From Blasia pusilla (Eukaryota): a stretch of DNA of 64,000 bases. Within the stretch, counting starts at the first letter, position 1. The number at the start of each line of letters is the position of its first letter. This document shows positions 2,945-56,267 of the stretch, one piece after another. Made by a program: the position numbers and the translations under genes. The DNA lies in the NCBI GenBank assembly GCA_050084515.1, contig CM114271.1:1674001-1738000 (forward strand), given 5' to 3'. The notes beneath the pieces are model-generated. The model was not told where the DNA came from. It was given only the letters and a program-made list of their open reading frames with translations, and made no database searches.

Positions 2945-2974
2945 ATCATTTTCGGCCAATATCTCAATCTGTAC

Positions 2975-24279: not shown

Positions 24280-26469
24280 CTTGGCGTACCTGCAAAACAT
24301 CCCAAGAAGTCCAAGGTTATCTCTTCCGATCACCCGTGGTGTGTCGATCTCCTCGGGTCTTGCCCCTTGCCGCTGCCTCAACCGTCTTGGTAGGCATGGG
24401 CTCACTAACGCAATAGCTACGATATGTTGCATCCTCAAATGGGGCTGCTTAGCTACTCCTAAGCTGAAAATCCATGTCAAGCAATTCTGGTCCATCGTCT
24501 GACCCAAGACATCACGTCGTGATGCCTCTCATACTGACGGTACTGCCGTCACTCTTGTGGAGAATCCCATCGCTCTTTCTCATCAGCGTTGGGCTACACC
24601 AACCTCTGTACATGGTCAACCCAAACCAAGCCAGGTCCTCCCAAACCAAGCTAGGTCCGACCTCCTTGAATGCATAGGAAGCGGAAAAACTCACCAATGT
24701 GGGAAAGGCTGCCTGTGGCTTCCCAATCTTGTTGACCACAGTCAACGGCGATCGATCATCTAGCCTCACTGCCTGTGATTGACGGCCCGGATCCAATATA
24801 GAATCCACCAACAAATTGGAGGGATGCTCCACTCTCGCATATACCCTCCGTAATACCTCGTGTGGTACCAAGTTGCTCCACCAAAGACACGGGCAATGTG
24901 CTTGTGAACCTACACTCACCGTATCTAACAACACTGTCGGGTCGATCCATGCGCGCACCTGATGTGCACTCGTCACCACGCGGGACCTCAAATCGCCCAA
25001 AATTGGCACATTCTCCAAAATGTATGCTGGGGCCAGTAGCATTTAGGCCAAGTGATGGCACTGCTAAATGCTACTAAGGTCGCCATCTCTCATGGCCGTC
25101 GTTCAATCATTGCACCTGCGAATCAAACGCGTAACGAGCTAAGGCGCCCATCACCTGACTGCCATCCTAGTCTGTAGGACGCTGACTCCTCCCAGTAATC
25201 TAGGGAAAACCCCATCGGGTATAATACTGCTCCACCAACCAAGACGTCGTAGGACTCTGCATCAATCAATATCGCATTGGCTCGCACCACAGACTCATAT
25301 GTAGGATGTCCTTGGCGAATCCTTACCACAACCTCCAATCGGGTGATATATTGTGTGGTACTCGCTCCACCCAAGGATGTCTATACGTGGAATGGACAAC
25401 GCTCCACATCGGCTCTCGTCAAGCCCAATCTTCTAAATGACGCTTTTCCCAACATCAGGGGTTGCGCTCTTGAATCCAACAAGACGCGATGCGGACTAAA
25501 AGCTCTACCTCCGGGACTCACCAAATGGAAGACCTCTCCCCGGTTATCCAGCAATACAACACCAGGAGAAACCATGGCACGCTCTATCGCGGGTCTAGTG
25601 GGCATCTCCGCCATCCTAGCAGCCGCAGCCTGCCATGAATCTGACGTGGACGGCCGGAGCATCCGCTCCAAGGGCAGGTCCATCACCTCCTCTCCAATCA
25701 CCTCTAAACGTGATGCAGGAACTCCAACTCCACGCTCACATAGCGTAGTGGCCAGCCGAAAAATCTCGAAGGGCATACCTCCCAACGTCATAACATCAGA
25801 AGCAGAAAATAAAGTATTTTGGGTAAGTTTTATGTTGGGGATAGTTGAATTTCCACTTTGGGAAGTGGTCCTTGACCCGCTACAGTAGGTCGAGCGCGGT
25901 ACACAACGATGGCCGCCCCCAACAACATGCTCGACACATGCCCCTTTTGAGCATCAACAATAGGAGTCGTCGCACTTGCTTCTCCCATCGCCCTCCGTGC
26001 CTCCACACCGACAACATCACCAACTCTCCAAGAACTCTGATTAGGACCCATCAATGGGGTCCTCATCGCCTCGGACAACGTGAAAAACTGAGGAAGCCTA
26101 GTTTGTTTCCTAGCTTCCCCTCAGCTGTGGATCCAACTCTACGGCGAATCCCACGTCACAATGGCGGCGGCCTCCATCTAGGCAACCCCACACATCCAAC
26201 CAAGATCCTCCATATCTCTGGTTGCTCCATATGATGTCGATGCCACGGATCCGACATCGGGTAATCTCAATGCCATAGCGGCAATCTGCTCATGTAGCTG
26301 ATGTATTTGAGCAGCCATCCTAGCCTCAAGTCCGACGTCTCCCTTCAAGCGTCTAGGTGGTGAGACTCTACCTCCTCCACGGGAAGCTCCACCACCGTGT
26401 CAGGCAACTTCAGCTCCTCGTCCCCCAATGGGACCACCTAGTGCACGATCTCTAGGCCCACCCGGACGG
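24280..26469 (-). mobile_element. Gypsy family A, copy 1, internal fragment: gag tail, linker, aspartic protease and C5-DNA methyltransferase (partial)
   Basis: 25678-26469 aligns by eye with 52011-52730 of the Gypsy-PHD copy. It is followed by protease RVLLDSRAQPLMLG (LLDSGA-type)...YDVLVGG and then DNMT motifs. Confidence 0.85.
24465..25042 (-). pseudogene. C-terminal half (motifs VI-X) of a cytosine-5 DNA methyltransferase, DNMT3-like, embedded in Gypsy pol
   Basis: AYILENV (motif VI, ENV at 25015-25007). PTVLLDTVSVGSQAHCPCLWWSNL (motif VIII; compare DNMT3 [22 protein letters not shown]; the two Cys codons TGC/TGT are single C>T changes from Arg). After a frameshift, PNADEKE/AMGFSTRVT...SRRDVLGQTMDQNCLTWIF (motifs IX-X). 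Motifs I-IV are absent (internal deletion at about 25045). Confidence 0.85.
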
Positions 26470-27360
26470 GGGCTGGTATTCTGGCAAGAGAGAGAAAGAG
26501 AGGAGAGGAAGAGAGGAAGAGAGGAGAGTCTCTCTTAAAAAAAAAAAAAGGGCAGAATCCGCTCTCCTCTCTTCAAAATTTTTTGACATATTTGAAATTT
26601 TTGTTTGCTTTAAAATACAAGAAATCTTTAGAAGAGAGTAGCAAGTGGACCACATTCGGGCCTAAAGTAACCTCCTTTTTCCAGGGGAGAAAAAAATAGA
26701 CATCATAAGACTACTACAAACATTCTTCCATCACTCTCCATGTGAGCTTAAGTTTCTTCACATTGTCTGTCTCACTCTACAGTAAGCTGTGCCCATGGAT
26801 ATTTTTAACTACTCTAACTATGGTCTCAATAGACTGCGGTGTCCTTCAAGGTTTAACTTCTCGGAATATGTGGTTGACATTATGGATTGACATCTCTTCT
26901 TGCAAAAGGCATAAAATACTCCTCAATAAGGGGCAAAAGAAAGGCAAAAGGAAATGCCTTTAAATGATTGTTGACTCTTCTAGCAAAAGGCATCAATACT
27001 CATCCATAAGGGGGTTTTCCACAACAGAACAAATCGCTCGTCACTCATGGTAGCCTTAGACTTTCATTACATCATTTGATGATGTGGGCTCTTGAATGGG
27101 TGCACAAAGTATACCATGGACTGCTGTGCATTTGACAACTTGGTTTCACCATTCTCTCTGCCACTGAGAAATGTGAACACACGAGACGACAATTGAACCA
27201 AAAGATTGATAGCTGTCTGGAGTAAAGAGGAACTGATAAAAAAGAAAACGTGATCAGACGAGACGACAATTGAAGCAAAAGATATTTAGTTATTAGGAGT
27301 AAAGAGGAACTGACGCACCCATGTCCTTCATTCAGATCCTAAATCTGAGAATCTGAGAAG

Positions 27361-27780
27361 CTGCACCCCTCCCAACCCGTCGGAATTCGACAAGTTGCAA
27401 CTCTTGCAATCCGTCGGAATCGAATGGGTTGCACCCCTTGCAAGCAAGCTCACCATAACAAAAGAAGGATTTTTAGAAGTGATTCCATTCCGCCCTGCAC
27501 CCCATGAGAATGCAACAGGTTGGGAATCCTAAATGGCAATCCGACACGTAGTAGGAATCCAACACGTCTTAGAGAAGAGAAGAAGCCTACGACTGGTTTG
27601 ACGATAATATGGGAACGAGCCAAAAGTGAAGAAGCCCTCCAGAACGCCTCAAAACTTGGACTTACAAGGAAAGAGTCCGATCACTCAAGCAGCCAACCTG
27701 TCGGAATCTGAAAAGTTGCCTGAAAGTGGTTAAAATATTGTGAGAAGTTGCAACCCGTTGGAATCTCACGGGTTGCAAAA
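27361..27780. repeat. Left subterminal cluster of the palindromic motif TGCAACCCGTCGGAxTCCGACGGGTTGCA
   Basis: At least 5 degenerate copies, e.g. ttgcaacccgttggaatctcacgggttgcaa at about 27748-27778. Confidence 0.85.
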
Positions 27781-27883
27781 TAAACAGTCTGAGTAGATAG
27801 ACCAACACAATCGACAAGACCAAAAAAGATATTCAGCAAGCTTTTACAAACACCATCATAGATCAAAAAATTCTTGTCCTTTA

Positions 27884-29540
27884 TTACATCCGAGGGAAGC
27901 TCGAAAATGTATATTTGATCTTGTCTATGATTTCTTCAGCCTTGTCATCTACAAATTTACTCCTAACTCTCCTAGGTTCCAGTACAAAAGAAATGTCCTG
28001 GGATACAAGTGGCTCCTCTGGCCGATTGTAGACCGGGATCAAAATGTCGGGGAATTTGAGAGCCTTGGCCCCCCCCCTAGGTACACCATAACGGTCCCAT
28101 GTAACCTGATTTGAGTCCCACCGCCTTCCTCGGCAGTAAATCTTGTACCCTCTGCAAGGCGACATCCATCCAATATCAATATGTGCTCGGTCCTTTGGAA
28201 ACCAATAAATCCCTACTCCAAAACGCTCCAGTCAAGCTGGGTCCTTTAGTTCTTTGAACTCACTCCTCATCGTCCAAGAGCTCTTCCAGAATTACTGTCG
28301 GCCTTGCCCTCTCGATTTTTGGAATAGTGGGAAGTGACGATTGTGTCACTACCAATGGTGGGTTTGGAACCAGAGCTCTCGGCTTTGGAGGAGAGTTGTA
28401 TGCTCGAACTAGCCTGTCGTAATCTGCCTTTGCCTCTTTGCAAAGGTCATAAAGTTCCTGCCTTCCCTCAAGGCAGATAATGTTCCTGCCACTTTGCCAG
28501 GCGCCTCTGATACTCGCCCTTGATAGGCCCACTAAGTCGAAGACCAAGTCACCCGGCCTTGAACAGAGCTCGATGAGCGCTTGCATCAAGGCAGGGGACT
28601 TTTCCCTTCCTCCAAGTAAGGGGGTTTCGTCTTGCATGTAAATTCCTGGGAGGGAATTGTATAAACTATCTAAGCTGTACCCATCGGAGCATAAAACGAC
28701 TCAATCCAGGATCTGGAACACCTGGAAGTTGTGCTCGGGCCTTACAAAACAGTAAACCCTAAACCTGCTTCTTTACAGATGGTCCATGTGTAAAGAAGCA
28801 GGTTGGAAACAATGTCACCAAAAAGAAAGAGGTACTTGACCGCTGGTCTACTCTCAATATGGTGACATAATGTGCAACACGTTCATAGTGCATTCTAGTT
28901 CGTGTTGATTACCAACCCATAAGAACTTGGCCTAAAGTCCTAACAGTAGAGCAACCTGTCGGAGTCCAACGGGTTGTTTTACAAGTATAATTGTTTTTTT
29001 TTGCCATGAGCAACCCGTCGGAAGCCGATAGGTTGTTGGCTTAGAGCAACTCGTCGCTTTCCGACGGGTTGCATCACTCCAGAAACACAAGGAAAAGCAC
29101 AAGTACTTGCAACCCGGCGGATTCCGACGGGTTGCCCTCACTCAATGGAGATTTGTGGTAAATTTGCAACCCGTCGCTTTCAGACGGATTGCAACACCCC
29201 AGCCACAAGCTGTTGGGATCCGATGGGTTGCATGCAGAGATGCAACCCGTCAGAGCCCGACGGATTGAATTTGGATTAAGAGCCCTTTCCCGGACTTGAC
29301 TTGTCGCCAATCGGAGTGGATACTCGTTCTTGATGATCCATGATTGCGTTGTCCTCCACTTCAGTGACCTATTCACGCACTGAAGGTTGAAGAGCTTGTC
29401 CTCGCTCCCTCCAGTCAAGACCAAGAAACAACCCTTGTCACTCAGTTAAGCGTCTGCAAAAGAAAACAAAAGCGCGATCTGGTCATAGGTAAGAGGGACA
29501 TTCCAGTCTGGGACAGGAGGATGTGGCAAAGAAAGGAGCC
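27884..29540 (-). pseudogene. N4-cytosine/N6-adenine (beta-class, N6_N4_Mtase-like) DNA methyltransferase, 5'-truncated, spliced
   Basis: Inferred exons ~29540-29296, 28939-28917 and 28764-28260 (GT-AG, in frame) read PPVPDWNVPLTYDQIALLFSFADA*LSDKGCFLVL...SWIIKNEYPL...FRVYCFVR...GGREKSPALMQALIELCSRPGDLVFDLVGLSRASIRGAWQSGRNIICLE. This matches the K-P-x-x-L...L-I...S-x-P-G-D-L-V-x-D-x-F-x-G-S-G-x-x...G-R-x-x-I-x-x-E (motif X-I-II) pattern. Two in-frame stops. A frameshifted C-terminal extension runs to 27884. Catalytic motif IV is not present. Confidence 0.78.
28950..29270. repeat. Array of about 7 copies of the same palindrome inside the methyltransferase intron
   Basis: e.g. tgcaacccggcggattccgacgggttgc at about 29108 and tgcaacccgtcgctttcagacggattgca at about 29165. 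Confidence 0.9.
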
Positions 29541-32416
29541 GAGGTCTACAGAAACTCTCCGGGTTCAAATCCCGGAGTGATCAAGCTCACAACGGCATCA
29601 CAAATTTTTGAACAATTGCTTGGAATCCCTGGACAGGGCGAGATTACGGCGGTTGAGGAGAAACAACTCTGGGAGAATCTCGCATTTCTCGCTGATCCTG
29701 TATGCTTCCGGAATTTGCTGCGTCAAATACGAGTTCTGGATGGAAAGACGGCCGAAATGGATGCCATCGCCAGAATCAAGGCCAACTCCAGATTTCCATT
29801 CATTCAGAGATGGTAGTTCATGGGCCAAGGAGGCGAGGGATCCAGGCCTATGTCTTCAAAATGTCAACCACAGTCCGTCGAGTGGCCTCGATCTTATAGA
29901 TCGAATGAGGGAAGGGAAGATCTTTACGGGAGTTGGGTAAGCTTTGATATTTGCTCAGAGTCTTTGAACGGATGGTTGACGATGGGTGCTCACGTTTATG
30001 ACCATGTGGAGAAGGGACTCAAAACTATATTTGTCTGTGAAGTAAAAGCGTAAGACGTTGGCGTTTGAAGATGTCTTTGGTTACTCTTATTGGAGGTGGT
30101 GAAGGAAAACAAAAGGCCACCTCCGGAAATTTATGGGTTCATGGCGGACAATGCACAACCTGGGTGGATTGCTATCCGGGAAGTGTTTCGGGGTGAGAGG
30201 TTCAACTGGAGAGGGAAAGGTCGGATGCTTTCCATTGGCAACAGTCTGTGACCCGGTACACCAAATCTTGCATCAAGGAGAATAAGAGGACAGAGCATGT
30301 CACTCTACTCCAACGCTGCAAGGACAGCAAAACCTTGAAGCATGCCATGGAATGCGAGGAAGAACTTCATGGGTGGTGGAGGAAGCATGCGATTGAGGGG
30401 AAGTACAAAGAATTGTGCTCTTGGTTGAGTTGGTGGACTGTACGTATGAGACAATGGGGAAACTTCATGCGGCAGGTGAGTTCACTATTTTGTCTTGTCA
30501 AGCTCACGCTGAGAATTGTTTGTAAAGTTGTAGCTCAGGGTGAGAAGCGTGGGAACTATATGGATTTCAAACGGAAGAAACCAAGCAAGCTGTCGGATGC
30601 GACGGGTTGCCCGAGTGTGCAACCCGACGGAAACCGAGGGGTTGCATCCAGATGTTTGGTGCAACCCGAGTGTGCAACCCATCGGGACCCGACGGGTCAC
30701 AGAGTCGTTCATGGGATGCCTCGGCCTTGCAACCCGTCCGGTTCCGATGGGTTGCAGTAGGTGGGTTTAAGGTTACAACACGTCGGGACCCGACGGGTCG
30801 CAGAGTCGTTCATGGGATATCTCGGGCCTACAACCCATCTGGTTCCGACAAGTCGCTTATTTCTTTGAATCCTGAGTTATTTTCGTTCCCTTCTAACATT
30901 GCTGTCGTTGCAGGGATTGAACGTTCATGAAAATGCCCTCTACCCCAACACAAGTGGAGCAGAAAGTGTTCATTCCTCTTGGAGGTCGTCACAAGCATGC
31001 CAACGAATTTCACTTGTGGAGGCATGCCAACAAGACCAGGCAAGAGCAATGCTACAGTCTGCAGCATCCCATATCTTCCTCACAAAAGGCATAACAAAAG
31101 GAAAGGGGTCGTCGATCTACGAGCTCTATGTCAGAGCGGCTGTGAGATCTGGTGATGAAAAATTGTATGTCGAAGCCTTCAACCGGTGCGTAGCTGGAAC
31201 TCCACTCGAGCAAGACGTACACATAGGTGGGGATATTTGTGGGCGGGTTTCAAGATGTCCCATACAGATGGTGGTAGAGCCATCCGAACGAGACTCGTGG
31301 AGACTAGATAAGTATCTTGACTTGAGCGAGGTGAAGAGGCGAGCATCGAACGAATCCGGTGATTGATTTGGATGAGGAAATTACACCGCCCAGGTATTCG
31401 GGGACCCCGGACCCGTCCCAAATCCGTGATGGAGTTACTTCTCCAAAATCAGTGAATGTTTTATTTCAAAAGCCCTCCGTTGCTGGAAGTTCGCAACATC
31501 CTGTCACTGGGGTGGTTCAACAATATGGGATTCCGGTAATGGAGGTGGATTGCAACCTAAAATGGTGGCATATATCTCGGAGCAACCCAGGACGTGGACC
31601 CACCTGCAGGGCAGGATCTAATGGCATTAGGAGAGCATGCGGCACTTTCCTAAATAAGAACTGTACAAGGATCGGGCGATTACCACGCTCGGGTTTTGGG
31701 AACTCAAAACCTTTGATCGTTTCACGAGGACCGGGGATCAATTGAAGTACTTCTTCTGCCCAAATGAATCTTGGGCTTTCCGGAAGTCTTATCCGGCTGC
31801 CATTGGAGCTCCCAGGAATACCCCCACGATTTGGCCCATCGCCGCAGGCACGAACCGCACTCAAGACGAAGTGGACAATCTTACAAGTGCCGGTTTCAGA
31901 CTCGTAGATGGGGGAAGTTCGGAGCATGTTCGCATTACAGAGACCTTCGCATTTTGTATTCAACCCAAGATTGATGTCAACATGTACCCGGAGAAGGTGG
32001 ATGATCTCAATCCATTATTTCTGTTTGAGTCTAGAAATGGGGTGAAGAGAAACAGAATGTGCAGGCCAACGGTGGAGAGAGCAAAGCGAATTGCATAAGC
32101 TCGGGAGGCAAAAATGGAGATCATCGCCACGAAAGATGTCTTGAGTGGCAATGGAATAGGAAGGATGTATTGGGTCAAGAACAACACTGTAAATTCAAGT
32201 GTCACAGGGATGTATGTGGTGCACATCTGTTGCTTTCCCACATGTTCATGTGATGACTTTGTCCAAAGAGAGACAAGTGGCAAAAGGTATTTCCCTTGTA
32301 AGCACATGTACTATGTGTTGCTGGTAGTTTTAAGAGAGTCGGAGGTAGGAGTAAGAATCCACCAACCAATTCTGTCCCTCAAAGAAGTTCGAAGTATTTT
32401 AAACAAACCACTTTGA
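29541..32416 (+). pseudogene. MULE-like DDE transposase with C-terminal SWIM zinc finger, 5'-truncated, one intron (30476-30913)
   Basis: Across frameshifts: WVSFD (D1), TMGAHVYD, YGFMADNAQPGWIAIREVF (D2), DAFHWQQS (C/DxxH), W-rich segment WLSWWTVRMRQWG, then CAG/GTGAG...TTGCAG intron, PNTSGAESVHSSW (catalytic E), and SWIM YVVHICCFPTCSCDDF...PCKHMYYV. Confidence 0.85.
30585..30856. repeat. Array of about 6 copies of the same palindrome inside the transposase intron
   Basis: e.g. tgcaacccgtccggttccgatgggttgca at about 30728. Single copies also occur at about 32593 and 32712 near the right end. Confidence 0.9.
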
Positions 32417-32869
32417 GGATGCAAAATGAGGTTTTAGATTGTACTTTTTTTTTTCTCAACCTTCACTTTGAGCTTGAACTCTATTCAGCCCTGGGCAAAT
32501 GATAGATTTTTTCCAGACCTTGGATGGAAAAAGTGATTGGTTCCACACTTATGATTCCACTGATTTTTCAGTTTTCTAAATTTTGTGCAATTTGCAACTC
32601 GTCGGACTTAGAGGGGTTGCCAAAATATGGAAGAGGAAAAAAAAATTGTGGGACTGCTTAATATATGAACAAAAATGCTTAAAATAATTCAAACAAAAAT
32701 TTTCCTCTCTTCAACCCGACGGAAACTCTCTTAAAAAAATATATCTATTTCGGTTGAAGGTAGTTTCCTCTCTCCTCTCTTCCTCTCTTCCTCTCTCCTC
32801 TCTCCTCTCTTCCTCTCTTCCTCTCCTCTTACCGTTCCTCTCCCCTAAACCCATACATCATCGACGCGT

Positions 32870-34386
32870 TCCTAGCATCAACACGAAACCCAATATCCCA
32901 AATAACTTCCCAATACCCGAAAATCCCTCACATGTGCAGGGTAAGAGACCAGAATGGGTAATTTGACAATAATGTCGATGTCGCTCCTCAGCAACTACAA
33001 ATCTCAACCCCAACTCGGTCGTGGAGACAACTCCTCTAATCAGCAAGTTGTACTCCTCTTGTACTGACGATGCTCAAACCTCCTCGATGTGCGGTGCAGG
33101 TCCAACTGTCCGATGTGGCATTGGCGGCACGGAATGGCTACAAACGGCACGGCACTCGGGAATGGGATGCGGCATTCCTCGGCATATCCTCCTCAATCAG
33201 CAATTCACACGCTTTGCTCCTTAGTGAAGGACCGGCTCCCCGATCGAGATAGTGTGGTGCGGCCATGAGCGGCACGGCGTGGCAATCGGCGGCTCGTTGT
33301 GACTACAGGCATCACGGCACGCTACTCGATCGTCGTCGAGCGGTTACCAATCACACCATAGCAACATGAAATGAAAACTCAAACACCATAACGTGGGGTC
33401 ACGTGCCATCACTGGTTGAAGAAAAAACTGCAATGACAATGGCGGCCAAACCAAAGTACGTGGTGGCGGCGCAAGTCAGAGAATCAACAGTGGTCGTGGA
33501 AGACCCTCCACTCCGTAATGGCGGCAATGGCAACCAAAGGGTGGACAACGGACGAACGCGGCTCTAAGCAGCGCTAGGCGGGGGCAAGGACCGACGGTGG
33601 ACGGTGATGGTTGATCATTGACGGTTGACCGTTGATGGTGACTATGATGGCGATGGCGACGGCCGCCGTCGGCATGGCGGCTGGTTTAGGGTTTGAACAA
33701 TTTAACCCTAAAAATCACCTAGCAATGGCAGTTTTGCAAGATTCACCATAACTTTTTTTCTCGCAACTCCAAATTGCGCACCATTTGTTGCACAGCATGC
33801 ACAGCTTTACAATCTACGCTAGAGTTAAAAAATATTTTGAATCAAAAATTCCAGTAAAAACTGACAGAGACTGTTGTAAAGCCCAATGTCTCTTTCTCCT
33901 ACACAAAATTTGGCAACGCTTCTGCATCGATTTCTCCCAAAGAAAATGTAAAACCTGTGAAAATACAAATCAGAAAGCTACATCGTGCTCCTGAGAACAC
34001 CGGCATGGGGCAACCCACCCCATACTCAATCCCTATCAAAAATTGGATAACGCTTCCGCGCGCCACTCTTCCACACGAAAAATCGGCAAAAGAAACATTA
34101 CAAGTAAGCGGCTCCTGCTCCGGTGAGCACTCCCATGAACTGCTGAACAGGGGATATGATCCCCAACCTGCAAAACCAGCGAGTGACCTACGAGCTCCCC
34201 CATGAAGCTCTCTCACTCACTCATTCTCTCTTTGTAAAATAAGATGCAATCTCTCTCACAACACCATAGTTCTCACATGTGTGCACTTTCACATGTCTCT
34301 CTCAATGTCAAACCAAACCCACTCTCCTAATGAGAGGCTTGGGTTACACACACAAGGCAAGCAAGACCATAGCTCCGCCGCCTCAT
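32870..34386 (-). mobile_element. Gypsy family A, copy 1, 5' leader region
   Basis: 32870-33360 matches 54240-54730 and 33760-34386 matches 55310-55921. It ends at the same ccatagctccgccgcctca motif that abuts the LTR in copy 2. Confidence 0.85.
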
Positions 34387-34389
34387 ACA

Positions 34390-37300
34390 AATTCTCTTTG
34401 AAGGCTAGAATATCCTCTATGCGACCTCTTGAGATAACATTTGCCACACATGTGCATGATCCTCATCTATCTCAGTTGCCTCCATATCTTCTTCTTGACT
34501 AAATCTAGCTCTAGACAACATGTCAGCTACTGAGTTCTCTTTCCCAGTTATATGCTTGAATTGTGGATTCATGGACCTAATGTAGGCTATCCAACGTAGC
34601 ATGGCTATATCTGGAGTCCTACAATTCGCAATCATACCCAACAGAGGTAGACAATCAACCTCAAGAAATACATAAGCTCCCATAATACCCTTCTCAGCTT
34701 TCATTGCAGTTACAACTCCCCAAAGTTCTCTCTTTACTTGAGGGTACCTCCTCTCTCATTCTGTGAGTGTACGAGCTCCAAACCTTGTCGGAAATCTTCT
34801 TCCTTCCGTTTCATCCTGGCCAACTTCCCACCCAATAGCAATAGGGCTAGTGTCCACTGTGATGATAATAGGTCTTCCGCATTTATAACTCATTTGTCGT
34901 AGAACTAGTGGCGACTTCAATGCCTCCTTCAACTGCATCATTGCTGCTCCTTGCTTCTTCTCCCAAGTGAACTTTTTCTTCTTTCTCAACAGCTCATACA
35001 AAGGATCAAATATGTGGCCAAAATGAGGAATCCACACCGATAAAACACACAAGCTCCTAAAAACCTTCTCACTTCGGTGACGTTTTAGCATTCTCGTATC
35101 CTCCCGATGACATCAACTTTTGCAGGATTAGGTTTTCAGGCCAAACTCTCCACAAAGATGACCCACTACCACAATTTGAGGAACTCCAAAGCTACACTTT
35201 TCTCCATAAAGAGTAAGATTGACCTCTTCTAGTCTTGTTAGGATCATATCCACATCACGAATATGATCAGACACAAACTTTCTACATCTATCTTTCACAA
35301 CCCTCTCATTCCTATCTTCTATTGCACATCCCTTTATAGGAATATCATCTACAAAAGGAATGGTCTTCTCAGGAATGAATTCTCTCAAGATTTTATTCAT
35401 TGCACTCTACATGTGAGCGACAAAATTTGTTGCTCCTTGAGGTAATGTGCACATTCTTACAAGCCCAAGTGGAGTGCGCATAGTGATAATATCTCTACTC
35501 TCCATAGCTAGTTGGAATTTATCATATTATGAGTGCAAATCTTCTATCAAATAGATACCACGGGCTGCAAAAGCTTTTGCGACTTCATCTATTCTAGGCT
35601 TCGCTCCCATATTTTGAATGGTTACCTTATTTGCTGGTTGCATATCTTGAATGAATCGGAGAGCTCCTGATTTCTTCGGCACACTGAACCATCAAGTCGA
35701 GTAAGGCCCCATAGATGGCTCTAAGATACCCATCTTTATCTTCTCCTTCAATAACTCAATCAGCTTGGGAATCATAGCTCGTGGTACTAGTATAGGTTTC
35801 AAATCCCAAGGCACATATGGAACTGTGAAAATTACCATCGGTGCCACCACACTCGTGTCTACACAACCAATTTCTTGTGTAGTAAAAGAGAAGGACTTAC
35901 CATGTCTCTTGAACTTCTCCCGAAAGCTTTTCCTTTCAATTTTTGCGAGAAACTCACCCCCTCCAATTTGCAGACGATCTAGCGTCTCTTCTGTGAACTT
36001 GTGTCCGATCTTCCTGACATCCCGTAGACTTGGCTCCAGTGATGCACGTTCTACTTGTTTTCCACAACCCTCTGGTAGTTGAGTAGCCATTGGTTTCATC
36101 TTCCGGGCCATCGTCTTGTATTTCATGTGCACTCGTGCCTCCATGGGATGTTCTTCAACCTCAAACTTGTGCTCTTCCTCTTCCTTCTCCGTAATTCATA
36201 TCCATTTTCTCCTTCCATAAACCTTGATATTTCTTCATGCAACTCACGCGAGTGAATTGTAATCATACTTGTATCCAATGAATCGGTGCTCATCTAGGTG
36301 AACATCTCTTCAAGACTATCCCAAAACTCTCTTCTTCATACATCCCACTAATGAACTCTTCATCTAATAGAACATCCTTACATTTTAACAAACCCTTTTT
36401 TTTCCATAAAACATCTTTTCTTTTCATTCATTTCTTTCATCATTTGGAATGTACTAGACCACGAAGAAAAACATTGAGAAAACCCACACCTAAACATATA
36501 TGATTCTTCCCCTTTGCTTGCGGAAGACTCTTTCTTTTCTCTGCACCCCCATATTCCCGCTCTACAAAAGTGCTAACTAAAAATCCGAAAACTCCTTCTC
36601 TACCTTCATAGGATCATCTCTCAACTTCTCCCTATTCCTTTTATGATCTACTCGTACAGTAAGGAATTGAACTGATCTTGTTCCATCTTGACTTCTAATA
36701 CGGGCATAATGAGACCAATCATCCATGATTTTGGTCTCCATTCTAGATGCTGTGATGTAAGGTTGCCCAAGAATCGTAGAATAAGGAGCTCCATTCTAAA
36801 CAAAAAAATTTTGCTCAATCAACACATCTCCGATACGAGTTTTGACGGATGGACAAGCACCGTAGAGTTCACCATTTTGGTTGTTAGCCACTCGTGGTAC
36901 CCATCCATGCCTTGTATCAATTGTCCATATCCCTTTGTCATATACACTTCGCGACATGATGTTGATCTCCGAACCATTATCAACGAGAGCCAAAACTGAC
37001 TCTTGGAGAGAGCCAAGTCGAAATCTAGCCTCCGTCGTTGCACGTGCCCAATATGACCGAGAATAGTGTCCAACATTGTGCGTTTCTTCACCTTTTTCTA
37101 TCAAGGTTTTTCTTACTCTTGCCTCTTCTTCCCGTAAGTCAAGCTTTTGTCCAAAATCTTGGCAAAGCTCTTCATCTTCTTCTTCTGTGATGTCAGTATC
37201 CAAAACCCTCACCATCACCATATCTGCAGTCATCTGCCTCTTCCTTTTGATCACATCTATGATCAACTCATGAAAGTCACGTTTGGCTATGCCCAAAACT

Positions 37301-39076
37301 TCCCTTAGAGAAAACTCTATTTTTGCATCCAAAATCCTCTCCTCAAGAATCTCCTTCAAATTCGTGTTTGTCTCGATATCAGACTACACCTTGTATGTAA
37401 GAGTCCTACCCTTGGTCTTCTGAGGAGACCTCAATTCGTTCCCCTTCATCCCTGCTTCTTTGACTTGAGAATCCCTCATAGATTCAAATGTGGAAGGTCC
37501 TTCTTCTCTTGATGGTTGTGCCTCCGGTTGCCTTTTTCTTCTTATGGTCCTCGCTCTTCTTGCAGCTTCCTTACCATCAACACCATTATTATCGCGTCTC
37601 CTCTTCTTCTCCATTCTAGCATCTTGCCAACTCACATGGTTCTCTTGTGCTAGGTATGCTTTAACAGACCTAGCTTCCATTGGATCATCCCATCCAGTCA
37701 GATGACGGATAGTCTCTGCCCCTCGTACCATTGCTTCTCGAGGAAATTGTAATGATTCACTTTTAGCTACAGATACAATAGGCGCTTTTATTTTTACTGC
37801 AAAGGTATCAGAATCTAATGCCGTAGTGACAACTCCTACTTGAATTCTCACAAAGCCTTTCATTCTTCCTCTACCAAAGTTGATATTCAACGGCATACTA
37901 GTATGCGTTAAATGAATCTTCTCATCTTTAAAGTTTACTATTCCATTCCTAAGAGCTTCTGAAAACTCCTCACATTCTTGACGTTGATGCTCAACATTAT
38001 CATACCATATACATCTTCTGACAAAGTTTTTATTTTTCAAAGCAACACCAACACTATGATTCCTATCTAGTTTAAGCTCAGTCATTTCTACTCTCAATTC
38101 TCTTAAATCTTTCACCAACTCATCAATGACAGAATCTTCAAGTTTTGCTGACATGGGCTTAAGCAATGGATTTGAAATTGATACCTCCGACTTGAATAAT
38201 GCGGTTCTACCTCTACTTCGACTTTGCTTTGTGAGGATAACAACATCTTCTTCCACTTTCTTCCAACTAGTGCTGACACCTCCTTCTTCGGTCTTGTCCG
38301 CCAATATTATGAAAAGCTTATCCTCCAAATTCTCATCTGCCGTCTCAAGGAATAACTTTGTTTTCCTCAAGTCTAGAGTTGCCCTTTCAAAAGAAGAAAG
38401 CTGAAAAAACCGTTTCTCAAACTCACGCAACAATTTATTTGGAGTCATTGCCTTCCTTGGACATTGCTCTATCCATTCTAGAAAACTCCTCTTAGTCACC
38501 TGATCCGCATCATCATCGAAGAATTCTCCTTTCAACAACTGTTCATACTCCTCCCACAAGGTTGGATTTTCTATTCTCAACTTCTTTACTTGACTACGAA
38601 TCTTTGGTATTATAGCTAACTCAAAACTTGACACCATATCACCTTTGAATACACGGTTTATCTCCATCTCACAGTCGTACTTTCGAACATATTTGGTGAT
38701 GTTCCTCCCATCAAATCTCCCCAACTTTTTTACGATCGCTTGGAGAGCCTTTGTTGATCTTTGCTCTCCTATGTGAACTCCTCCTTATTAGCTCAACAAT
38801 GTTGTCAAAGTTTGGAGAAGATCTTCAGCTCCCTTAGTTCTCATTGATCAAATATTACCAAAAGTAGTCATCTTGATAAGACTTCAACTTGCAAAAACAG
38901 TCTACCACTTGAATGATCTCTCAGTAGAAGCACCATTTGTCGTGTCGAGAGTCTTTCTTCGAGTAAGGATGGATCTTCTAACTGCGACAGACGTGATCGA
39001 TGCAAAATGCACTCTCTAAAAAGTTTTTTTTTTTCAAAACAAAATTATTATGTATACTCTTCATTCTCTTACGACA
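34390..39076 (-). mobile_element. Gypsy family B degenerate element: LTR remnant, PBS-like site, gag, protease, RT, RNase H; integrase missing
   Basis: Gag GRFDGRNITKY (38724-37384), protease LALVDNGSEINIMS, RT GILEPSMGPYS...IPFVDDIPIK, RNase H IITVDTSPIAIGW...HITGKENSVADMLSR. TGTCGT...ACGACA LTR remnant at 38938-39076, followed on the minus strand by TGGTGCTTCTACTGAGAG. Confidence 0.9.
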
Positions 39077-49169: not shown

Positions 49170-52100
49170 TGGCGTCAGACATGTCATATGCCATCCTCTC
49201 AAACACCCATCATAGACTAGCAGAGTGGTTGCACCACGGGCAAAACCACACAACATACATTGCAAGCCTGTAGGAACTACTGTTAAGCTCGTATCAAGTG
49301 TACCATCAATATTCGGAAGATGACATGGCGCACAGTTACGCACATGGTCCTTCCAAACCATACCATCGCATCCCTCCAATAAGAGAACACCGGATGGAAA
49401 AATCTCACGCACTCTCAAGATGGTGCGCCCTACAGTCACATCCAACGTCGTGGGTGCTGTCTGTTGCAAGTAGATATAGTCTCGTTGATGAAACCTCTGG
49501 ATAGTAGGTCGATAACCACCACCATCCTCCCAAATAGTCGCATACCTCAATGTATCCCGATGTTGTGCAATCGCCAAGTTCTCAAACGCCATGGGCATCA
49601 CTCTCTAAAACAACTCAGCCCTCTGAAAACATGCTCGCATCCATACATCAGGTTCATCAAGGTTCAACACCTCACGAACATCTCGACAAATGGCCCCAGG
49701 TAAATCTCGCTCTCGGCCATACAAAAGCAAATACAGTGAGAAAGACGCTAAGGATGCATGCCTGCTGAATCTGAATCCCATCGCCAACCAAAGCATCTGG
49801 AGGTCCCATTCTCCTAGGTGACCTCTCTGCAAGCCATACTTGCGTAATCCTCTCTTCATCGTCTGCGCAACCTGCTCGCTAGTCCATCCGCCTCAGGATG
49901 GTCTCGCGAAGTAGTGTGGTGGTTGATCAGTGCCTTATCATACAATGCCTAAAACTCCACGCGAAACTCTATACCCTCATCTGTCAACACCTCAACTTGT
50001 GCATCGTAATGACTCAGCACTCGATCTAGAAAGGCATACGCTACTCTCTCATTCACTTTGTGAGGCAATGCAACCAACTCTATCCACTTTGAGAAGTGCT
50101 CTATCATCACCAACACATAATGACTATGGTGCTCTGTCAAAGGCAAAGGTCCTGCAAAATCCAAACTCCATCTGTAACAAAACCTTTGATTGGAAGTGGA
50201 TGCAACTGTGGAGTTAGAGCATTGAATGATGCCCGGACTCGATCACACACCATGCATCTGGCAACAAACTGCTGAACGTCAATCTGCATGCCTTGCCACC
50301 AATACTAAATCTCAAGCAAGTTGTACGTCCGCTTCACTCCAAAATGACCCAACTCCTCGTGGGCATGATACACCAAACATGCTCTCTGCAAAGGATGAGG
50401 CACTACAAGCACTCTACCATCCTCCCAAACTCGCAACACATGTGTCCCCTCCCATCGGAACCGTTTGCTCTCTGTAGGATCTGATCCCGCTCTCTAGCAC
50501 CCACCGTGCTCGCGACGCTTCCAGTACGCAAGTACTCCAAGACCTTTCCATCATCGTGAATGTCTCTGCCACTTTTCGTCTCCTCACCGACCTCTGGATC
50601 TAAGGACTCTCCATCAGACCTCGCAATCGAAGTCTCAACAACTTGGCTCTCCATAGCCAACAAGCCCAAATAGGCTGACGCATGCCATCCTGGCACCAAC
50701 TCTTCATCACTCTCGCCATGCCAATGATCTCAAGTCGCATCTTGTTCACTTGGGCATAGGTTACGGCTCAAACCATCTGCATCCTCGTTGAACGTCCTAG
50801 GTCTATGCACCACCTAGAAGTCATACTCCTGCAACAAAAGAGCCACCTCGCAAGCTTCCCTGTAAGCTTTTCGGACTCCATCAACCACTTAAGTGGTTGA
50901 TAATGAGGAATGATGGTAAAGGGGTTACCGAATAAATAACATGTGAAATGTGCGGCAGCCAATCACTCACCCTCATACGAGCTATACTTCGCCTCTACAG
51001 CGTTGTTCGAGCACCTAGCGTAAGCCACCATGAACTCTCTACCATCATCGTCATGCTAGGTGAGCACGGCCAAGCCCAATCGGTATGCAAGTGGAAAGGA
51101 CGCCCCTTGATCGGTCTCCTCAATATGGGCACGGACGTCAATCTGCCCTTGAGCATCTAAAATGTTCTCTCCTACTCATCCCCCCAATGCCATTCCTGAC
51201 CCACCTTGGTCAGCAAGATTAGCGGCTTCGCAATCAAACTAAAACCCTTGACGTACCGTCGATAGAAGTTTGCCAATCCCATGAATGCACAAACTTGACT
51301 CACATTTGAAGGGCATGGAATGCGTGAAATAGCCTCTACCTTTGTCTGTTGCACACCAAGCCCCCCTAGGTATATCGTATGACCCAAGTACTCAATCTGG
51401 TAGTAGAAGAACTTGCACTTTCCTGGATGTAGCTTCAGCCCATGTAACTTCAATTGTCAAAACACCTCCTCTAGATGTCGCTCATGCTCCACAAAAGTGG
51501 CCCTAAAGACTACGATGTCATATATATAACACCTAGGAAAATCCAAACCTGCCAAGATCCTATCCATGACCCTCTGAAACTCAGCCAGGGCGTTCTTTAA
51601 CCCAAATGGTAAGAACCGTCACTAGTACAAATAATCCTTCCCTTGAGGATTGATGCCCTAAAATTCCGTCTTCTACCTGTCCTCCAATCTGATAGACAAC
51701 TGATGGTATCCGACTTGAAAATCCAATGAACTGAAGACCTTAATTTGCATGCCCAATCGCATCAAAGATCTCCTCAAGGATGGGCATACCTATCAGACTT
51801 TGTCTGCCGTTTGATAGGTTGGTAATCTCCACACATCCGCCTATCCGTATAGTTGCCATGCACATCCTTCTTGGTGGGTATGAAAGTGACAGATGCATAC
51901 TCTCCATGCAACATCTCCACTAGTCCTGCTCCAACCAAGTCTAGGCTCCTACTCTAAATGAGAGCCCTCTCCATATCATTGTACTTGTAGGGTCGTCGGA
52001 AGATGGGCGTGTCGATCACCTCCTCTGTAATCACCTCTAAATGTGATGCAAGAACTCCAACTCCACGCTCACATAGCGTAGTGGCTAGCCGAAAAACCTC

Positions 52101-55100
52101 GGCGGGCGTACCTCCCAACGTCATAACATCGGAAGCAGAAAATAAATGAGCGTGGTACACAACAGTGGCCGCCCCCAACAACGTGCTGGACACATGCTCC
52201 TCCTGACCATCATCAATAGGAGTTATCACACTCGCTTCTCCCATCGCCCTTTGTGCCTGCACACCAACAACAACATCACCCACTCTTCGAGAACTCTGAT
52301 CAGGACCCATCGATGGGGTCCTCATCGCCTCGCACAACGTGAAGGACTGAGGAAGCCTCGTCTGTTTCCTGGCTTCCCCTCGATGTGGATCCAACTCTAT
52401 GGCTGCTCCATGCATAACAACTACGGCGGCCTCCATTTGGGCAACCCTGCACATCCAACCAGGATCCTCCATATCTCTAGAGGCTCCATAAGACGTCGAT
52501 GCCACGGATCCGGTATCGGATAATCTCAATGTCATAGCGGCAATCTGTTGTTATAGCTGATGTATCTGAGCAGCCATCCCAGCCTCACGCCGGGCGTCTC
52601 CCTCGACATATCTAGATGGTGGGACTCTACCTCCTCCATGGGAAACTCCACCATCCCCTCCGGCGAATCCAACCCCTCGTCCCCCAACGGAACCACCTGG
52701 TGTACGACCTCTAGGCCCACCCAGACCGGCAACTCGCTTTGGTGCCCTCTCTTGCCCTCAATCCGAATGTAACTCAGGGTGCAAGTTGAAACACCTAACA
52801 CGTGTGTGACCTTACCTCTGAAAATGGTCACATTGATAACATCCTGGTGCAGCACCATCTCCTCCTCCATGCTAAGGCACGCGACCATGACCTTGACGAG
52901 TGCAATCGTGCTGATGATGGGCTGCACCATATGACCAACAAGTAATCATAGGCAGCTGCTGTTGAGCCACATATGAAGGCGTAGGTCTCTGTGGCATGGC
53001 CTCCCTATATCCTCCCTGAGCTTGTGGTGCCATAGATCTATCTTGGAATCCATATTGTTGCACTGGTGGTGCAGGCAATCGTGACTGCTCTTGCCTAGAA
53101 CCCATGGTGGCTACGGTCTCCTCTGCCATGTTGCGCTCAATTTTCTCGTCGGTCCTAAAAACATCTCTCAACGTAGGGGAGGTGTTCATAAGAAGAACCC
53201 CCTCTCGCATACGTGTCCGCAGGGTGTGGTCCAACATCGCATACCATGACTGGATAGCCTGAACCTCTGTCACCCCCTGAGTGACGTTAATCAACCGGCA
53301 CAAGCAGGTGTAGGCCTCACGCAAACTCTCATATGGGCGCCTCTGGAAGTCGTGGATGCTCCACAAATTCTCCATTCGTACCCCCTGTTAGCTCGCCCTC
53401 AACTCAACGAAGAACTCAACCACGGGGTTAAAGTTGAGACGAACTCGACTAGACGATGCAACTGCTCCAATGCAAGTCATCCCTCCTACAACATCACTGA
53501 TGGAGGAACCCTCTCCTCACTCCTCCTCCTCATCTGGAAACGGCTCAGTCCATGACACATAGTGTGGGTCATAGTAGAGTCTTCAGGCCTCAATCTCATG
53601 GGCATATCTTTGCGAGAACTCATGGTAATTGTCCATGGGTGCCCCCTCTAAATGCTGGAATATTCCGTTCCATATTGTAAACAGGTTGAACTCTCTACAA
53701 TTCCTAGCCTGCAGTGAGTCACACCAACTCCTAAACTCCGCAATGAAGTCGTGTAACTCTATAGTGCCTATAGCACCGAGAAACCTACGCGGTCCTCTAC
53801 CCGGTCGTCCATCTCGTACGCCCAACTGGTAGGACCACTCAATGTATGGGGTGGATCACTAGCACACTCCTCTACACTCTTCCCCTCATCTAAAGATGAC
53901 ACAGAACGAGATCGAGGTGGTCTCTCACGTGGAGACCCTCGAAACCTCGCACCACTCCGGATAAACCCTCTAGAGCTACTCTCAGGTCCACCAGCTCGCC
54001 TCTCAAAGTCCCGAAAGGACGCCGTGATGATCCTCGTGCTCCTCTCACATGATCTCTCTCAATCTTGGAAGTAATCACTCAATCCAACATGCCGCACTCA
54101 ATCTACACTCTCTCACTGAGACATGTGTTGTGCGGCAACAAGCGGCGTGGTGCGGAAAATCGTCTACTGTCCTATCATCTCATTGACAAGACACACCCAC
54201 AACTCTAGACATCCCACACATGTCTATGTCCCCTAACCCAGCATCAACACGAAACCCAATATTCCAAATAACTTCCCAAACCCAAAAATCCATAACACGT
54301 GCAGGGAAAAAGACCAGAATGGATAACCAGACAACAAGTGTCGATGTCGCGCCTCAGCAACTAAAAAACCTCATCCCCAACTCCGTCGTGAATACAACTC
54401 CTCCAAGCAACAAGTCGTACTCCTCTAGTACTGACGATGCTCAAATCTCCTCGATAGCGGTGTAGGTCCAACGGTACGGTACGTCACTCACGGCACGGAA
54501 CAAAATGGCTATAAAGAGCACCGCACTCGGTAATAAGGTGCGGCACTCAGCGGCATACCATCCTCAACAGTAATACACTCTCTACTCTACAATGATGGTG
54601 CGGCTCAACGATCAAGACGGTGCGGTGCGGCCACAAGCAGCACGGCGCGGCAATCGACGGCGCGTTGCGGCTACGGGCGTCACGGCATGGTACTCGATCA
54701 TCCTCGAGCGGCTACAAATCACGGCATAACAAAGCGGCGGGATTCGCGGCGATCGAGAGATTCAGACGTCGGCTCTACAGAAGCCTCGGACGGAGCGGCG
54801 ACGCGCACATCCTTAGTATCTTGTCGGCACTAGGAGGTCCGACCATCGGGTGGCGGCCCTGAAGTGTCGACGGACTACACAGCATACAACGGCGATAGCA
54901 AGTGCACAGCCACTTTGCGTCTCTGGGATAGTCGGCTAGGACACGGTGGGACAGACGTTGTCCCCCGCCATAAAAAAATTTCATTTTTTTATTTTTTTAA
55001 CTAGAATAACCCCTGGGAAAATTGGATCTCCACTATCTTTCCTTACTTGACATCCCCCCTCCTGACAAGTCTGCAAATTGAATGCCTTACCACAAATCCC

Positions 55101-55921
55101 TCCTAAGATTGAGGGTCAACACCCCCAAAAATGGGATCTACTCACCCTACCTCCAAATAGTTGAATTCAATTGTCCTATCCACCAAGTAAACTGAATTTT
55201 TTTTCTACCTCTCAAGAAAGAATTTCTACCCAAAAATTTCAAAATTTCACTCACACCTTGGAATGGTGGCTATGGCAGCCCAACAAAAATGATCATACCT
55301 CCATGCTCCAATCTCCAAATTGTGCACCATTTTCTTCAGCAGCGTACATCACTTCCCGATCTACGACCTTGTCAAATTGGTTCTCCATTTGATTTTCCAC
55401 TAAGAACTGACAGGGACTGTCCTGCAGCCCAACGTCTCTTTCTCCTACGCAAAATTCAGCAGCGCTTCCGCGCTGATTTCTCCCAACGAAAATGTAAAGT
55501 CTATGAAAATAAAAATCAGCAATCTACACGGAGCTCTTAGAGCACCGGCATGGGGCAACCCGCTCCCATACTCAATCCCTATCAAAAATTGGGCAGTGCT
55601 TCCGTGCGCCACTCTTCCACATGAAAAATCAGCAAAGGAAACATCAAAAGTAAGCAGCTCTTGCTCCGGTGAGCAGTCCCATGAACCGCTCAATGGGGAA
55701 TACGATCTCCAACCTGCAAAACCAGCGAGTGACCAACAAGCTCCCCCATGAAGCTCTCTCACTCACTAATTCTCTCTTTGTAAATCAAGTAGATCCAATC
55801 TCTCTCACCACCATAGCTCTCAAATGTGTGCACTCTCTCTCAATGTCAAACCAAACCCACTCTCCTAATGAAAGGCTTGGGTTACACTCACAAGGCAAGG
55901 GACCATAGCTCCGCCGCCTCA

Positions 55922-56267
55922 TGTCAAGAGGTTTAACAAAGAAACCTCTCAAGCTCTCAAGCTCTCTCACCTTGAGGTATACCCCCCTTCCCTATCCCAA
56001 GCTCTCTCCTCGATAACCTATGCTTGTAGGTCACCTCCTTGGCTCTTGACCTGCTGTAGCGGGTCAAGGGCCACTTCCTAAAGTGGAAAGGCAACTCTAC
56101 CAAATACATAAACTTACCCAAAATAGTAAGTTTCTCTATATGGCTCCAAATGAGCTGAAACAAAGGGAAGACCTCAGCAGATCATCCTCGACCTCCTGAT
56201 CCTGTCCTCCTCTACTCACAAAGGTGCTCAACTAAATCTCTCCGATCTATCCTAAAAATTTATGACA
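55922..56267 (-). repeat. 5' LTR of Gypsy family A copy 2
   Basis: TGTCA...TGACA termini; homologous to 47220-47518. Confidence 0.8.

Follow-up and report, generated by a model that had tools for sequence, protein, structure and literature searches.

Does a DNA transposon of a land plant carry a DNA methyltransferase gene of its own, and what could such a gene do for the element? The question is raised by positions 26,470 to 32,832 of a stretch of 64,000 nucleotides from Blasia pusilla (the window; contig CM114271.1 of assembly GCA_050084515.1, positions 1,674,001 to 1,738,000). A sequence-only reading of this locus had described a Mutator-like element (MULE) in which a spliced amino-methyltransferase gene of the beta class lies head-to-head with a transposase gene, and had proposed that the element writes N4-methylcytosine (4mC) or N6-methyladenine (6mA). 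In this study, profile, homology, pattern and structure searches were employed to analyze the element, its two genes and their relatives. The explanation that we prefer, at somewhat better than even chances, is a dead cut-and-paste DNA transposon of ~6.35 kb bounded by terminal inverted repeats (TIRs), probably Mutator-like, with a divergent beta-class methyltransferase-like accessory pseudogene, the whole being a land-plant counterpart of a class of elements described from algae. The earlier observation was thus largely right and its interpretation right in kind, but it was not new, and it over-stated both the enzymology and the assignment to MULEs.

Boundaries of the element

The coordinates of all features of the element and its flanks are listed in Table 1. 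The unit (26486-32830) carries the same low-complexity, GA-rich 8-mer repeat at its two ends, in inverted orientation. The 30-bp inverted termini reported from the sequence alone were found again as a perfect pair (26499-26528 and 32800-32829; 30 nt, 100% complementary), and a repeat finder also gave a longer pair of 35 nt at 91%. The right terminal repeat contains an internal duplication of 30 nt (32766-32795 and 32796-32825). TIRs are therefore present as in Mutator-like elements, but they are short and of low complexity compared with the long TIRs typical of MULEs. Because low complexity invites chance matches, the specificity of the termini was checked. Exact copies of the 14-mer GAGAGGAAGAGAGG are confined to the two ends within the window, with two on the plus strand at the left and four on the minus strand at the right; with up to 2 mismatches allowed, 12 matches were found in the 64 kb against 0.58 expected. 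The window contains a single copy of the element. Close to the inner edge of each terminal repeat stands another 14-mer, CTCTCTTAAAAAAA, in the same orientation at both ends (26529-26550 and 32727-32745), and CCTCTCTTCAA is present near both ends of the element.

Table 1. Features of the element and of the host repeat on either side of it, in window coordinates.
Feature	Position	Strand	Description
Left flank	25672-26470		Host dispersed repeat, unclassified; paralogous to 52005-52729 at 83-91% identity; outside the element
Left terminal repeat	26486-26528	+	Pure purine run of 43 nt; unit AAGAGAGG; includes the 26499-26528 arm of the perfect pair
Left-arm palindromes	27368-27777		3 units in a non-coding arm: 27368-27399, 27402-27433, 27745-27777
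Methyltransferase-like block 2	28260-28700	-	146 codons and TGA stop; pre-motif-X region, motif X, motif I; PF01555 E 0.0015
Spacer between methyltransferase-like blocks	28701-29295	-	~590 nt; putative intron or inserted array; 7 palindromes (28949-29269) and a 43-nt palindrome
Methyltransferase-spacer palindromes	28949-29269		7 units
Methyltransferase-like block 1	29296-29580	-	95 codons, in-frame TAA at 29446-29448; SLPH, then VPDWN, LSDKGCFLVL, RTTQSWIIKNEYPL
Putative transposase remnants	29493-32416	+	Open reading frame blocks 29493-30251 (3 internal stops), 30197-30760, 30869-31366, 31658-32416 (1 internal stop)
Plus-strand-gene spacer palindromes	30583-30802		5 units between two same-frame blocks
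SWIM-like zinc-finger motif	32234-32326	+	CSC-x15-CKH; ~400 nt from the right end; PF04434 E 0.0044
Right-end palindrome	32592-32621		1 unit, ~140 nt inside the right terminal repeat
Right terminal repeat	32764-32830	+	Pure pyrimidine run of 67 nt, complement of unit AAGAGAGG; internal 30-nt duplication
Right flank	32871-33364		Host dispersed repeat, as left flank; paralogous to 54237-54732 at 80% identity; outside the element

The element is nested in another repeat of the plant genome. Both flanks belong to one repeat, of which a second copy lies at 52005-55922 of the window (80-91% identity), and the relationship continues beyond the right flank, where 33849-34386 matches 55395-55922 at 86% identity. 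Homology to the host repeat ends at 26470, exactly the coordinate at which the sequence-only reading had begun the element, and restarts cleanly at ~32871; the gap between breakpoint and terminal repeat is 15 nt on the left and 40 nt on the right. The host repeat is left unclassified because its open reading frames (ORFs) gave no Pfam match; an identity as a long terminal repeat retrotransposon was considered for the flanks and gained no support from Pfam. The part of the second host copy that lies between its two matching segments (52730-54236) encodes a minus-strand ORF of 171 codons.

The minus-strand gene

Judged by its sequence matches, the minus-strand gene is a dead but true relative of the beta-class N6/N4 DNA methyltransferases (PF01555). 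The ORF of block 2 matches positions 165-220 of the 221 positions of the PF01555 profile, that is its C-terminal quarter (E 0.0015). The score is 18.9 bits and the curated Pfam cut-off 26.7 bits, so that the profile check proposed earlier returned a match, but one below the cut-off. More specific relatives gave clearer results. P0060, a protein of the moss Ceratodon purpureus described below, matches 28467-28631 by tblastn (E 2.4e-8, 42% identity over 55 residues), and each of the six other family proteins tried matches within 28368-28685 (E 1.6e-7 to 4.9e-12). A divergent minus-strand gene of beta-class amino-methyltransferase origin, as claimed from the sequence, was hence confirmed, and since P0060 passes the PF01555 cut-off while the window ORF does not, the window copy is regarded as a diverged remnant of a qualifying family.

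The upstream strand LSDKGCFLVL, which had been assigned to the same gene, sits in an ORF (29074-29445) whose frame runs on through a single TAA (29446-29448) to 29580. Neither a Pfam match for this block 1 nor a significant BLASTP match of it to P0060 was obtained. Its read-through translation (VPDWN...LSDKGCFLVL...RTTQSWIIKNEYPL) aligns to P0060 residues 921-988 with a Smith-Waterman score of 44, which was reached by 5 of 2000 shuffles against the domain region of P0060 and by 10 of 500 against the whole protein, and this alignment directly precedes the significant match of block 2 in collinear order. The assignment of the strand thus stood on collinearity with P0060 and not on a profile, and block 1 is probably homologous to P0060. 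Block 1 has no recognizable start codon.

The reading frame differs between the two blocks, and the ~590-nt spacer that separates them is interrupted by stops in every frame; this stretch may reasonably be taken for an intron. The permuted motif order of the class is kept, with the motif IV-VIII region in block 1 followed in block 2 by motif X and, at the C-terminus, motif I. A pattern search found SLPH at the in-frame place expected for motif IV, GGREKS stands in place of HPTQKP as motif X, and motif I reads DLVGLSRAS. Compared with the rest of its family, the window copy is without ~30 residues between the LLVKTG-like and PWRG-like segments. The gene is broken by the TAA at 29446-29448, and its S-adenosylmethionine (SAM) loop and motif IV are destroyed.

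A dispersed methyltransferase-like family

When block 2 was searched with HMMER against 1.84 billion cluster representatives, only 3 proteins were found at E <= 0.001 (best 3.9e-5). All three are short and belong to one small family, and two of them have their own sub-threshold matches to PF01555 (22.0 and 26.5 bits). A family profile was built from four sequences, the window ORF and these 3 representatives. Against the PDB it matched DpnA/M1.HpyAVI at E 3.4e-5, M.RsrI at 0.21 and CcrM at 0.73. The sequence-only reading had named the lack of any profile or structure match to amino-methyltransferases as one result that would count against it; the match to DpnA/M1.HpyAVI and the score of P0060 above the PF01555 cut-off are the contrary result. 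At E <= 0.01 the family profile recovered 58 proteins of 57-203 aa. They are spread over many different long contigs of up to 1.08 Mb, fall into clusters of up to 17 members and include identical proteins on up to 20 contigs; for these reasons the methyltransferase-like family, with 59 clusters, is called dispersed and multi-copy. Its members are 45-60% identical, and the signature REKS...Q.LIE.CS.PG..V.DL...AS...SGR is common to the window gene, P0060 and the 58 short relatives.

P0060 is the only named member. It was found in a search for longer forms and is the Ceratodon purpureus hypothetical protein M758_1G295400 of 1147 aa. Its C-terminus scores 30.4 bits against PF01555, above the cut-off, and covers profile positions 2-217 of 221; phage DNA-methyltransferase PHROGs also match it (down to 5.6e-6). 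Another member, P0005, was placed among N6_N4_Mtase clusters by the language-model Atlas (score 0.94, 179 shared features). In the N-terminal part of P0060, a DGNHR motif was read by eye at about residue 335, and the segment at about 250-350 (...LQVVRPALENDV...FYVWDGNHRLVAWYEFI...) resembles the DGxHR of ParB/sulfiredoxin-type domains. Neither the window nor P0060 gave a match to a SET or 2OG-oxygenase domain.

The other searches for relatives added little. The homology search for longer proteins with the window ORF alone returned nothing, as did the scan of genome contigs, and the metagenome scan with the family profile gave 46 pattern matches, none of which was confirmed. In the viral scan (IMG/VR) one match was obtained, an ordinary phage methyltransferase of 258 aa (contig L001, 2060-2836, plus strand) with the motif IV D-L-P-Y. 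This enzyme indicates that D-x-P-aromatic variants exist in ordinary-looking beta-class methyltransferase genes.

Conserved changes in the catalytic motifs

The canonical motif IV of the beta class is (D/N/S)PP(Y/F/W). P0060 has D-T-P-F and the window copy S-L-P-H at this place, neither of which is canonical. The D-T-P-F of P0060 lines up with the D-L-P-Y of the phage enzyme, in a BLASTP segment which is itself not significant (E 0.75). Motif I was tallied in the 46 of 59 proteins that contain the region. The family has D-L-S-A-S-T-G-A-S where the canonical form is D-P-F-x-G-x-G. Position 3, canonically F, is S, T or L in 44 of 46, and its aromatic residue is lost in 45 (one has Y); position 5, the first canonical glycine, is S in 40, L in 4, E in 2 and G in none; position 7, the second glycine, is retained in 35. 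The motif I of the window copy has diverged further than that of the family. HPTQKP is replaced in the family by RG(S/P)(R/H)E(I/K)S.

That the altered motifs are conserved among the members shows past constraint on these proteins, a constraint which may have acted on catalysis or on binding, the two not being told apart by the sequences. If the family is active, its sequences would favor N6-adenine over N4-cytosine as the target, because motif IV is of the D type and the nearest solved relatives are all N6-adenine enzymes; a serine in motif IV has been associated with N4-cytosine by Iyer et al. (PMC4738411). The earlier proposal that the element writes 4mC or 6mA is accordingly unproven, given the SAM loop D-L-S-A-S-T-G-A-S of the family and the D-T-P-F of P0060. 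Since the changes in the SAM-binding and catalytic motifs are themselves conserved, the label methyltransferase should not be equated with DNA methylation in this family.

Palindrome arrays

A second feature that ties the interval together is a family of short palindromes with the consensus TGCAACCCGTCGG-loop-CCGACGGGTTGCA. A half-site search of the 64-kb window gave 19 matches against 0.06 expected, all within 27372-32605, and a search for full units of ~29 nt gave 16, all within 27368-32621 and none in the other 57.6 kb. Five of the units were folded and all formed hairpins (z -4.1 to -6.3 relative to shuffles). The same palindromes had been reported from the introns of both genes as specific to the element; they do occupy the spacers of both genes, and their specificity to the element is seen within this window.

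A palindrome of 43 nt at 28762-28804 (93% self-complementary), in the spacer just upstream of block 2, is unlike the 29-nt family. Searches of Rfam with the hairpins gave sub-threshold, miRNA-like matches only. In metagenomes the palindrome pattern was found at 2 loci of 62% GC, which look like bacterial terminator hairpins, resemble neither the element nor the family and were rejected.

The plus-strand gene

The plus-strand gene is probably a Mutator-like transposase, as far as its decayed sequence can be read. In-frame stops were located at 29814, 30051, 30066 and 32096, and the frame changes near 30200-30250. Together with the broken minus-strand gene and the SLPH that replaces a canonical motif IV, these stops bear out the earlier statement that the copy is dead: stops or frame changes are present in both genes, and the window copy is non-functional. 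A CxCx15CxH pattern of the SWIM type is present near the 3' end of the gene. The order FMAD...AIREVF, AFHW and TSGAES, compared by eye, bears a resemblance to MULE motifs. NCBIfam and PDB (two transposase ORFs) gave no match for the gene, and the Atlas gave no usable match for the ORF 30869-31366. The identity as a MULE transposase is weakly supported by these sequences, and caution is advisable because shared accessory genes have misled such a classification before: Plavaka elements were at first misclassified as MULEs on this account (bioRxiv 10.1101/2025.02.11.637652).

Comparison with known systems

The architecture had been thought to be undescribed. It has in fact been published for transposons of brown and red algae (Sola1, Plavaka and Mutator), and it is apparently new for land plants. 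In the description given in PMC12477816, the 21.5-kb element Sola1-1_Ec32 of Ectocarpus carries, on the strand opposite its transposase, a gene for a 1104-aa protein with ParB-like and N4C/N6A DNA-methyltransferase parts, and the protein is proposed to bind and modify its own transposon. The Blasia locus has the same arrangement of a methyltransferase-type gene (minus strand, 28260-29580) opposite a putative transposase gene (plus strand, 29493-32416) within a DNA transposon, and the size of the Ectocarpus protein is close to the 1147 aa of P0060. The carriers differ, one being a 21.5-kb Sola1 element of a brown alga and the other a 6.4-kb, probably Mutator-like element of a land plant, whose copy in the window is dead and without the N-terminal part. 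Of the features reported for the algal class, the opposite-strand gene and the inverted-repeat arrays (16 palindromes in four clusters) are found in the window, whereas an N-terminal ParB-like domain is not.

For the red alga Bostrychia, the account in bioRxiv 10.1101/2025.02.11.637652 describes Plavaka elements with PAG2 (PF01555 and SET), PAG3 (ParB-like and 2OG oxygenase) and tandem inverted-repeat arrays adjoining PAG3, and reports PAG homologues from giant Plavaka and Mutator elements of Chondrus crispus as well as from Zisupton and Fanzor elements. Shared with the Blasia element, according to that account, are a PF01555 domain in a DNA transposon, inverted-repeat arrays inside it, carriers that include Mutator types, and the degenerate state of most copies. 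The red algae have the ParB-like and methyltransferase domains on separate proteins, whereas P0060 joins a methyltransferase domain and a candidate ParB-like motif in one chain, and the SET and 2OG oxygenase domains of PAG2 and PAG3 are lacking in the window and in P0060. In Asparagopsis, 66 N6_N4_Mtase genes have been reported (PMC12115072).

The bacterial and phage N6-adenine enzymes of the beta class (M1.HpyAVI/DpnA, 5hek/5hfj; CcrM, 6pbd; M.RsrI, 1eg2) share the permuted order, with motif IV before X and I, and gave the best profile and Foldseek matches, but none of their canonical DPPY, HPTQKP and FxGxG is kept unchanged in the plant family. Marchantia MpDN4MT1a/b and bdelloid N4CMT are likewise beta-class amino-methyltransferases of prokaryotic origin in eukaryotes; they are described as 4mC writers and as host genes, not transposon cargo, and MpDN4MT1 has TSPPY as motif IV where P0060 has DTPF. 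The N4CMT structures ranked 33 and below in Foldseek (E >= 0.02) and were not matched by the family profile at E <= 1. DIRS1 retrotransposons, as presented in PMC4738411, also encode an amino-methyltransferase-like domain whose catalytic and substrate-binding residues are disrupted, but theirs is a PCIF1-related group 2 methyltransferase within a retrotransposon polyprotein. Our literature searches, whose scope lay short of a 2011 chapter with green-algal content and the supplements of the algal papers, gave no report of this architecture from a land plant. That chapter, by Iyer, Abhiman and Aravind, is cited for green algae in PMC12477816. The consulted sections of the 2015 review of eukaryotic adenine methyltransferases (PMC4738411) describe no such plant clade.

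Weighing of alternative explanations

Several results weigh against a Mutator-like transposon with a methyltransferase-like accessory gene. The window ORF alone is under the Pfam cut-off, as stated above, and with one copy only, the linkage of the gene to the transposase and the termini is a single observation. The bases beside the terminal repeats do not repeat, and thus no target-site duplication was found, the length in Mutator-like elements being 8-11 bp; no inverted similarity was found beyond the purine run. No clean empty site is available, because the paralogous host repeat carries 1.5 kb of other sequence (52730-54236) where the element sits; either the insertion was accompanied by a deletion or the two host copies differed beforehand. 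For the transposase, a MULE-type DDE/SWIM protein had been claimed. The SWIM pattern exists, but its PF04434 match is sub-threshold (17.0 bits against a cut-off of 19.6; E 0.0044, and 0.017 in the read-through translation), and six plus-strand ORFs and three read-through translations gave no match to PF10551 at E up to 10, which is a weak negative given the decay of the copy. The AlphaFold model of P0060 residues 875-1147 is of low confidence (mean pLDDT 56.7), and Foldseek with this model gave 11 matches at E <= 0.001, all of them beta-class N6/N4 methyltransferases, at TM-scores of only 0.17-0.25; the modeled fold therefore lends weak support to the methyltransferase assignment. No Pfam, NCBIfam or PHROG match was found in the candidate ParB-like region of P0060, and its fold model is unusable (pLDDT 42). 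By tblastn, nothing in the window corresponds to the N-terminal ~900 residues of P0060, and the likeness of the window gene to the algal proteins is drawn from published descriptions. The changes in motif I of the family would, moreover, argue against ordinary SAM binding.

Some of these points would be expected if there were no single transposon at all and two GA/CT microsatellites merely flanked a mosaic of decayed sequences, including a methyltransferase pseudogene. The low-complexity termini, the lack of a target-site duplication and of inverted similarity past the purine run, and a transposase without a family-level match would all fit this view. We nevertheless regard it as highly improbable, as exact copies of the unusual 14-mer are limited to the two ends and inverted relative to each other, the homology to the host repeat breaks off 15 and 40 nt outside the termini, and one palindrome family runs throughout the interval and is absent from the rest of the window. 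Still less credence is given to an origin from an integrated phage-like element or large DNA virus. Enzymes with PF01555 are typically found in phages and large DNA viruses, the nearest IMG/VR relative is a phage methyltransferase, and giant-virus relics have been reported from moss genomes (PMC4083422), but the list of moss relic genes in that report, in the portion consulted, contains no DNA N6/N4 methyltransferase, for which reason a giant-virus-relic origin was rejected; the 6.4 kb contain no other virus-like ORF, and the unit is small with terminal inverted repeats.

The place of the gene within the transposon is harder to settle. The sequence-only reading had favored an integral gene over a captured fragment, a choice that one copy is too little to decide. 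In a capture of the Pack-MULE style, the element would have acquired no more than the methyltransferase domain of a larger ParB-methyltransferase gene, one of the host or of another transposon, and the fragment would never have served the element. Consistent with this, only the last ~230 residues of the 1147-aa Ceratodon relative have a counterpart in the window, block 1 shows no start codon, and the identity to P0060 is just 42% over 55 residues; Pack-MULEs are known carriers of gene fragments (PMC6431247), and the red-algal accessory genes are reported to move between transposon superfamilies (bioRxiv 10.1101/2025.02.11.637652). We consider capture unlikely, if well worth keeping in mind, since the transposase remnants make the element untypical of a non-autonomous Pack-MULE, the same palindromes occupy both gene spacers as well as the non-coding arms, and the part retained, which reaches the stop codon, is nearly the whole methyltransferase domain and comparable in length to a free-standing bacterial enzyme of the beta class (PDB chains of DpnA have 232-240 aa). 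Plausible, though short of probable, is the same element with a pseudo-enzyme that lost SAM binding and kept a role in DNA binding or as a helper of the transposase, such as has been proposed for DIRS1, all of whose methyltransferase domains are probably inactive according to PMC4738411. The substitutions at motif I positions 3 and 5, the replaced HPTQKP and the DTPF of P0060 in place of DPPY all speak for it. The retention of the second glycine and the D-L-P-Y of a true phage methyltransferase (in an alignment that is not significant) speak against it, and the conservation of the altered motifs across members of 45-60% identity, while a sign of constraint, would suit a catalytic protein as well as a binding one.

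Other features of the window

The clearest host gene in the window is a plant Nodulin-like/NFD4 major-facilitator gene on the minus strand at 60407-62548 (PF06813 E 5e-40, PF23262 E 5e-15). Remnants of a Copia-type retrotransposon pol gene, with Pol_BBD, gag_pre-integrase, rve and SH3_retrovirus domains, lie on the plus strand at 2747-4425. On the minus strand at 36796-38784, an ORF of 466 codons without a Pfam match is followed directly in frame by one of 195 codons with a weak DUF4100 match (E 0.006). Parts of the 64-kb stretch are contained in 15 sequencing runs (best share 0.38), none of which is listed as RNA. Four air-metagenome runs (X8, X9, X11, X13) contain 0.11-0.18 of the sampled words of the stretch, which is no evidence of habitat.

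Implications for proposed self-modifying transposons

Under the preferred explanation of a Mutator-like transposon with a methyltransferase-like accessory gene, intact elements would make the accessory protein from a shared divergent promoter region. The protein might recognize the ~29-nt palindrome arrays of its own element and mark or coat the element DNA, with adenine-N6 a likelier target than cytosine-N4 should it be catalytic, and the outcome could be an altered silencing or transposition. A bolder version, which we think distinctly unlikely, supposes a Mutator-like lineage of mosses, and perhaps of other bryophytes, active or recently so, whose non-canonical ParB-methyltransferase binds the palindrome arrays as parS-like sites, writes 6mA and so controls its own chromatin. 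If it were true, this would be the first experimentally accessible self-modifying transposon, of a class so far predicted in algae only, and in a setting where moss genetics is tractable.

In 2025, ParB-methyltransferase genes carried by transposons were pointed out as a potential new class of accessory proteins, which would bind the element that encodes them and modify it epigenetically, and the algal evidence for that class so far consists of genome annotation alone. A related, dispersed PF01555-like family is present in at least one named moss, Ceratodon purpureus, and one member lies inside a TIR-bounded element in the window analyzed here. The class is thereby extended towards land plants, in which gene knock-out, expression assays and the calling of modifications from long reads are established routine.

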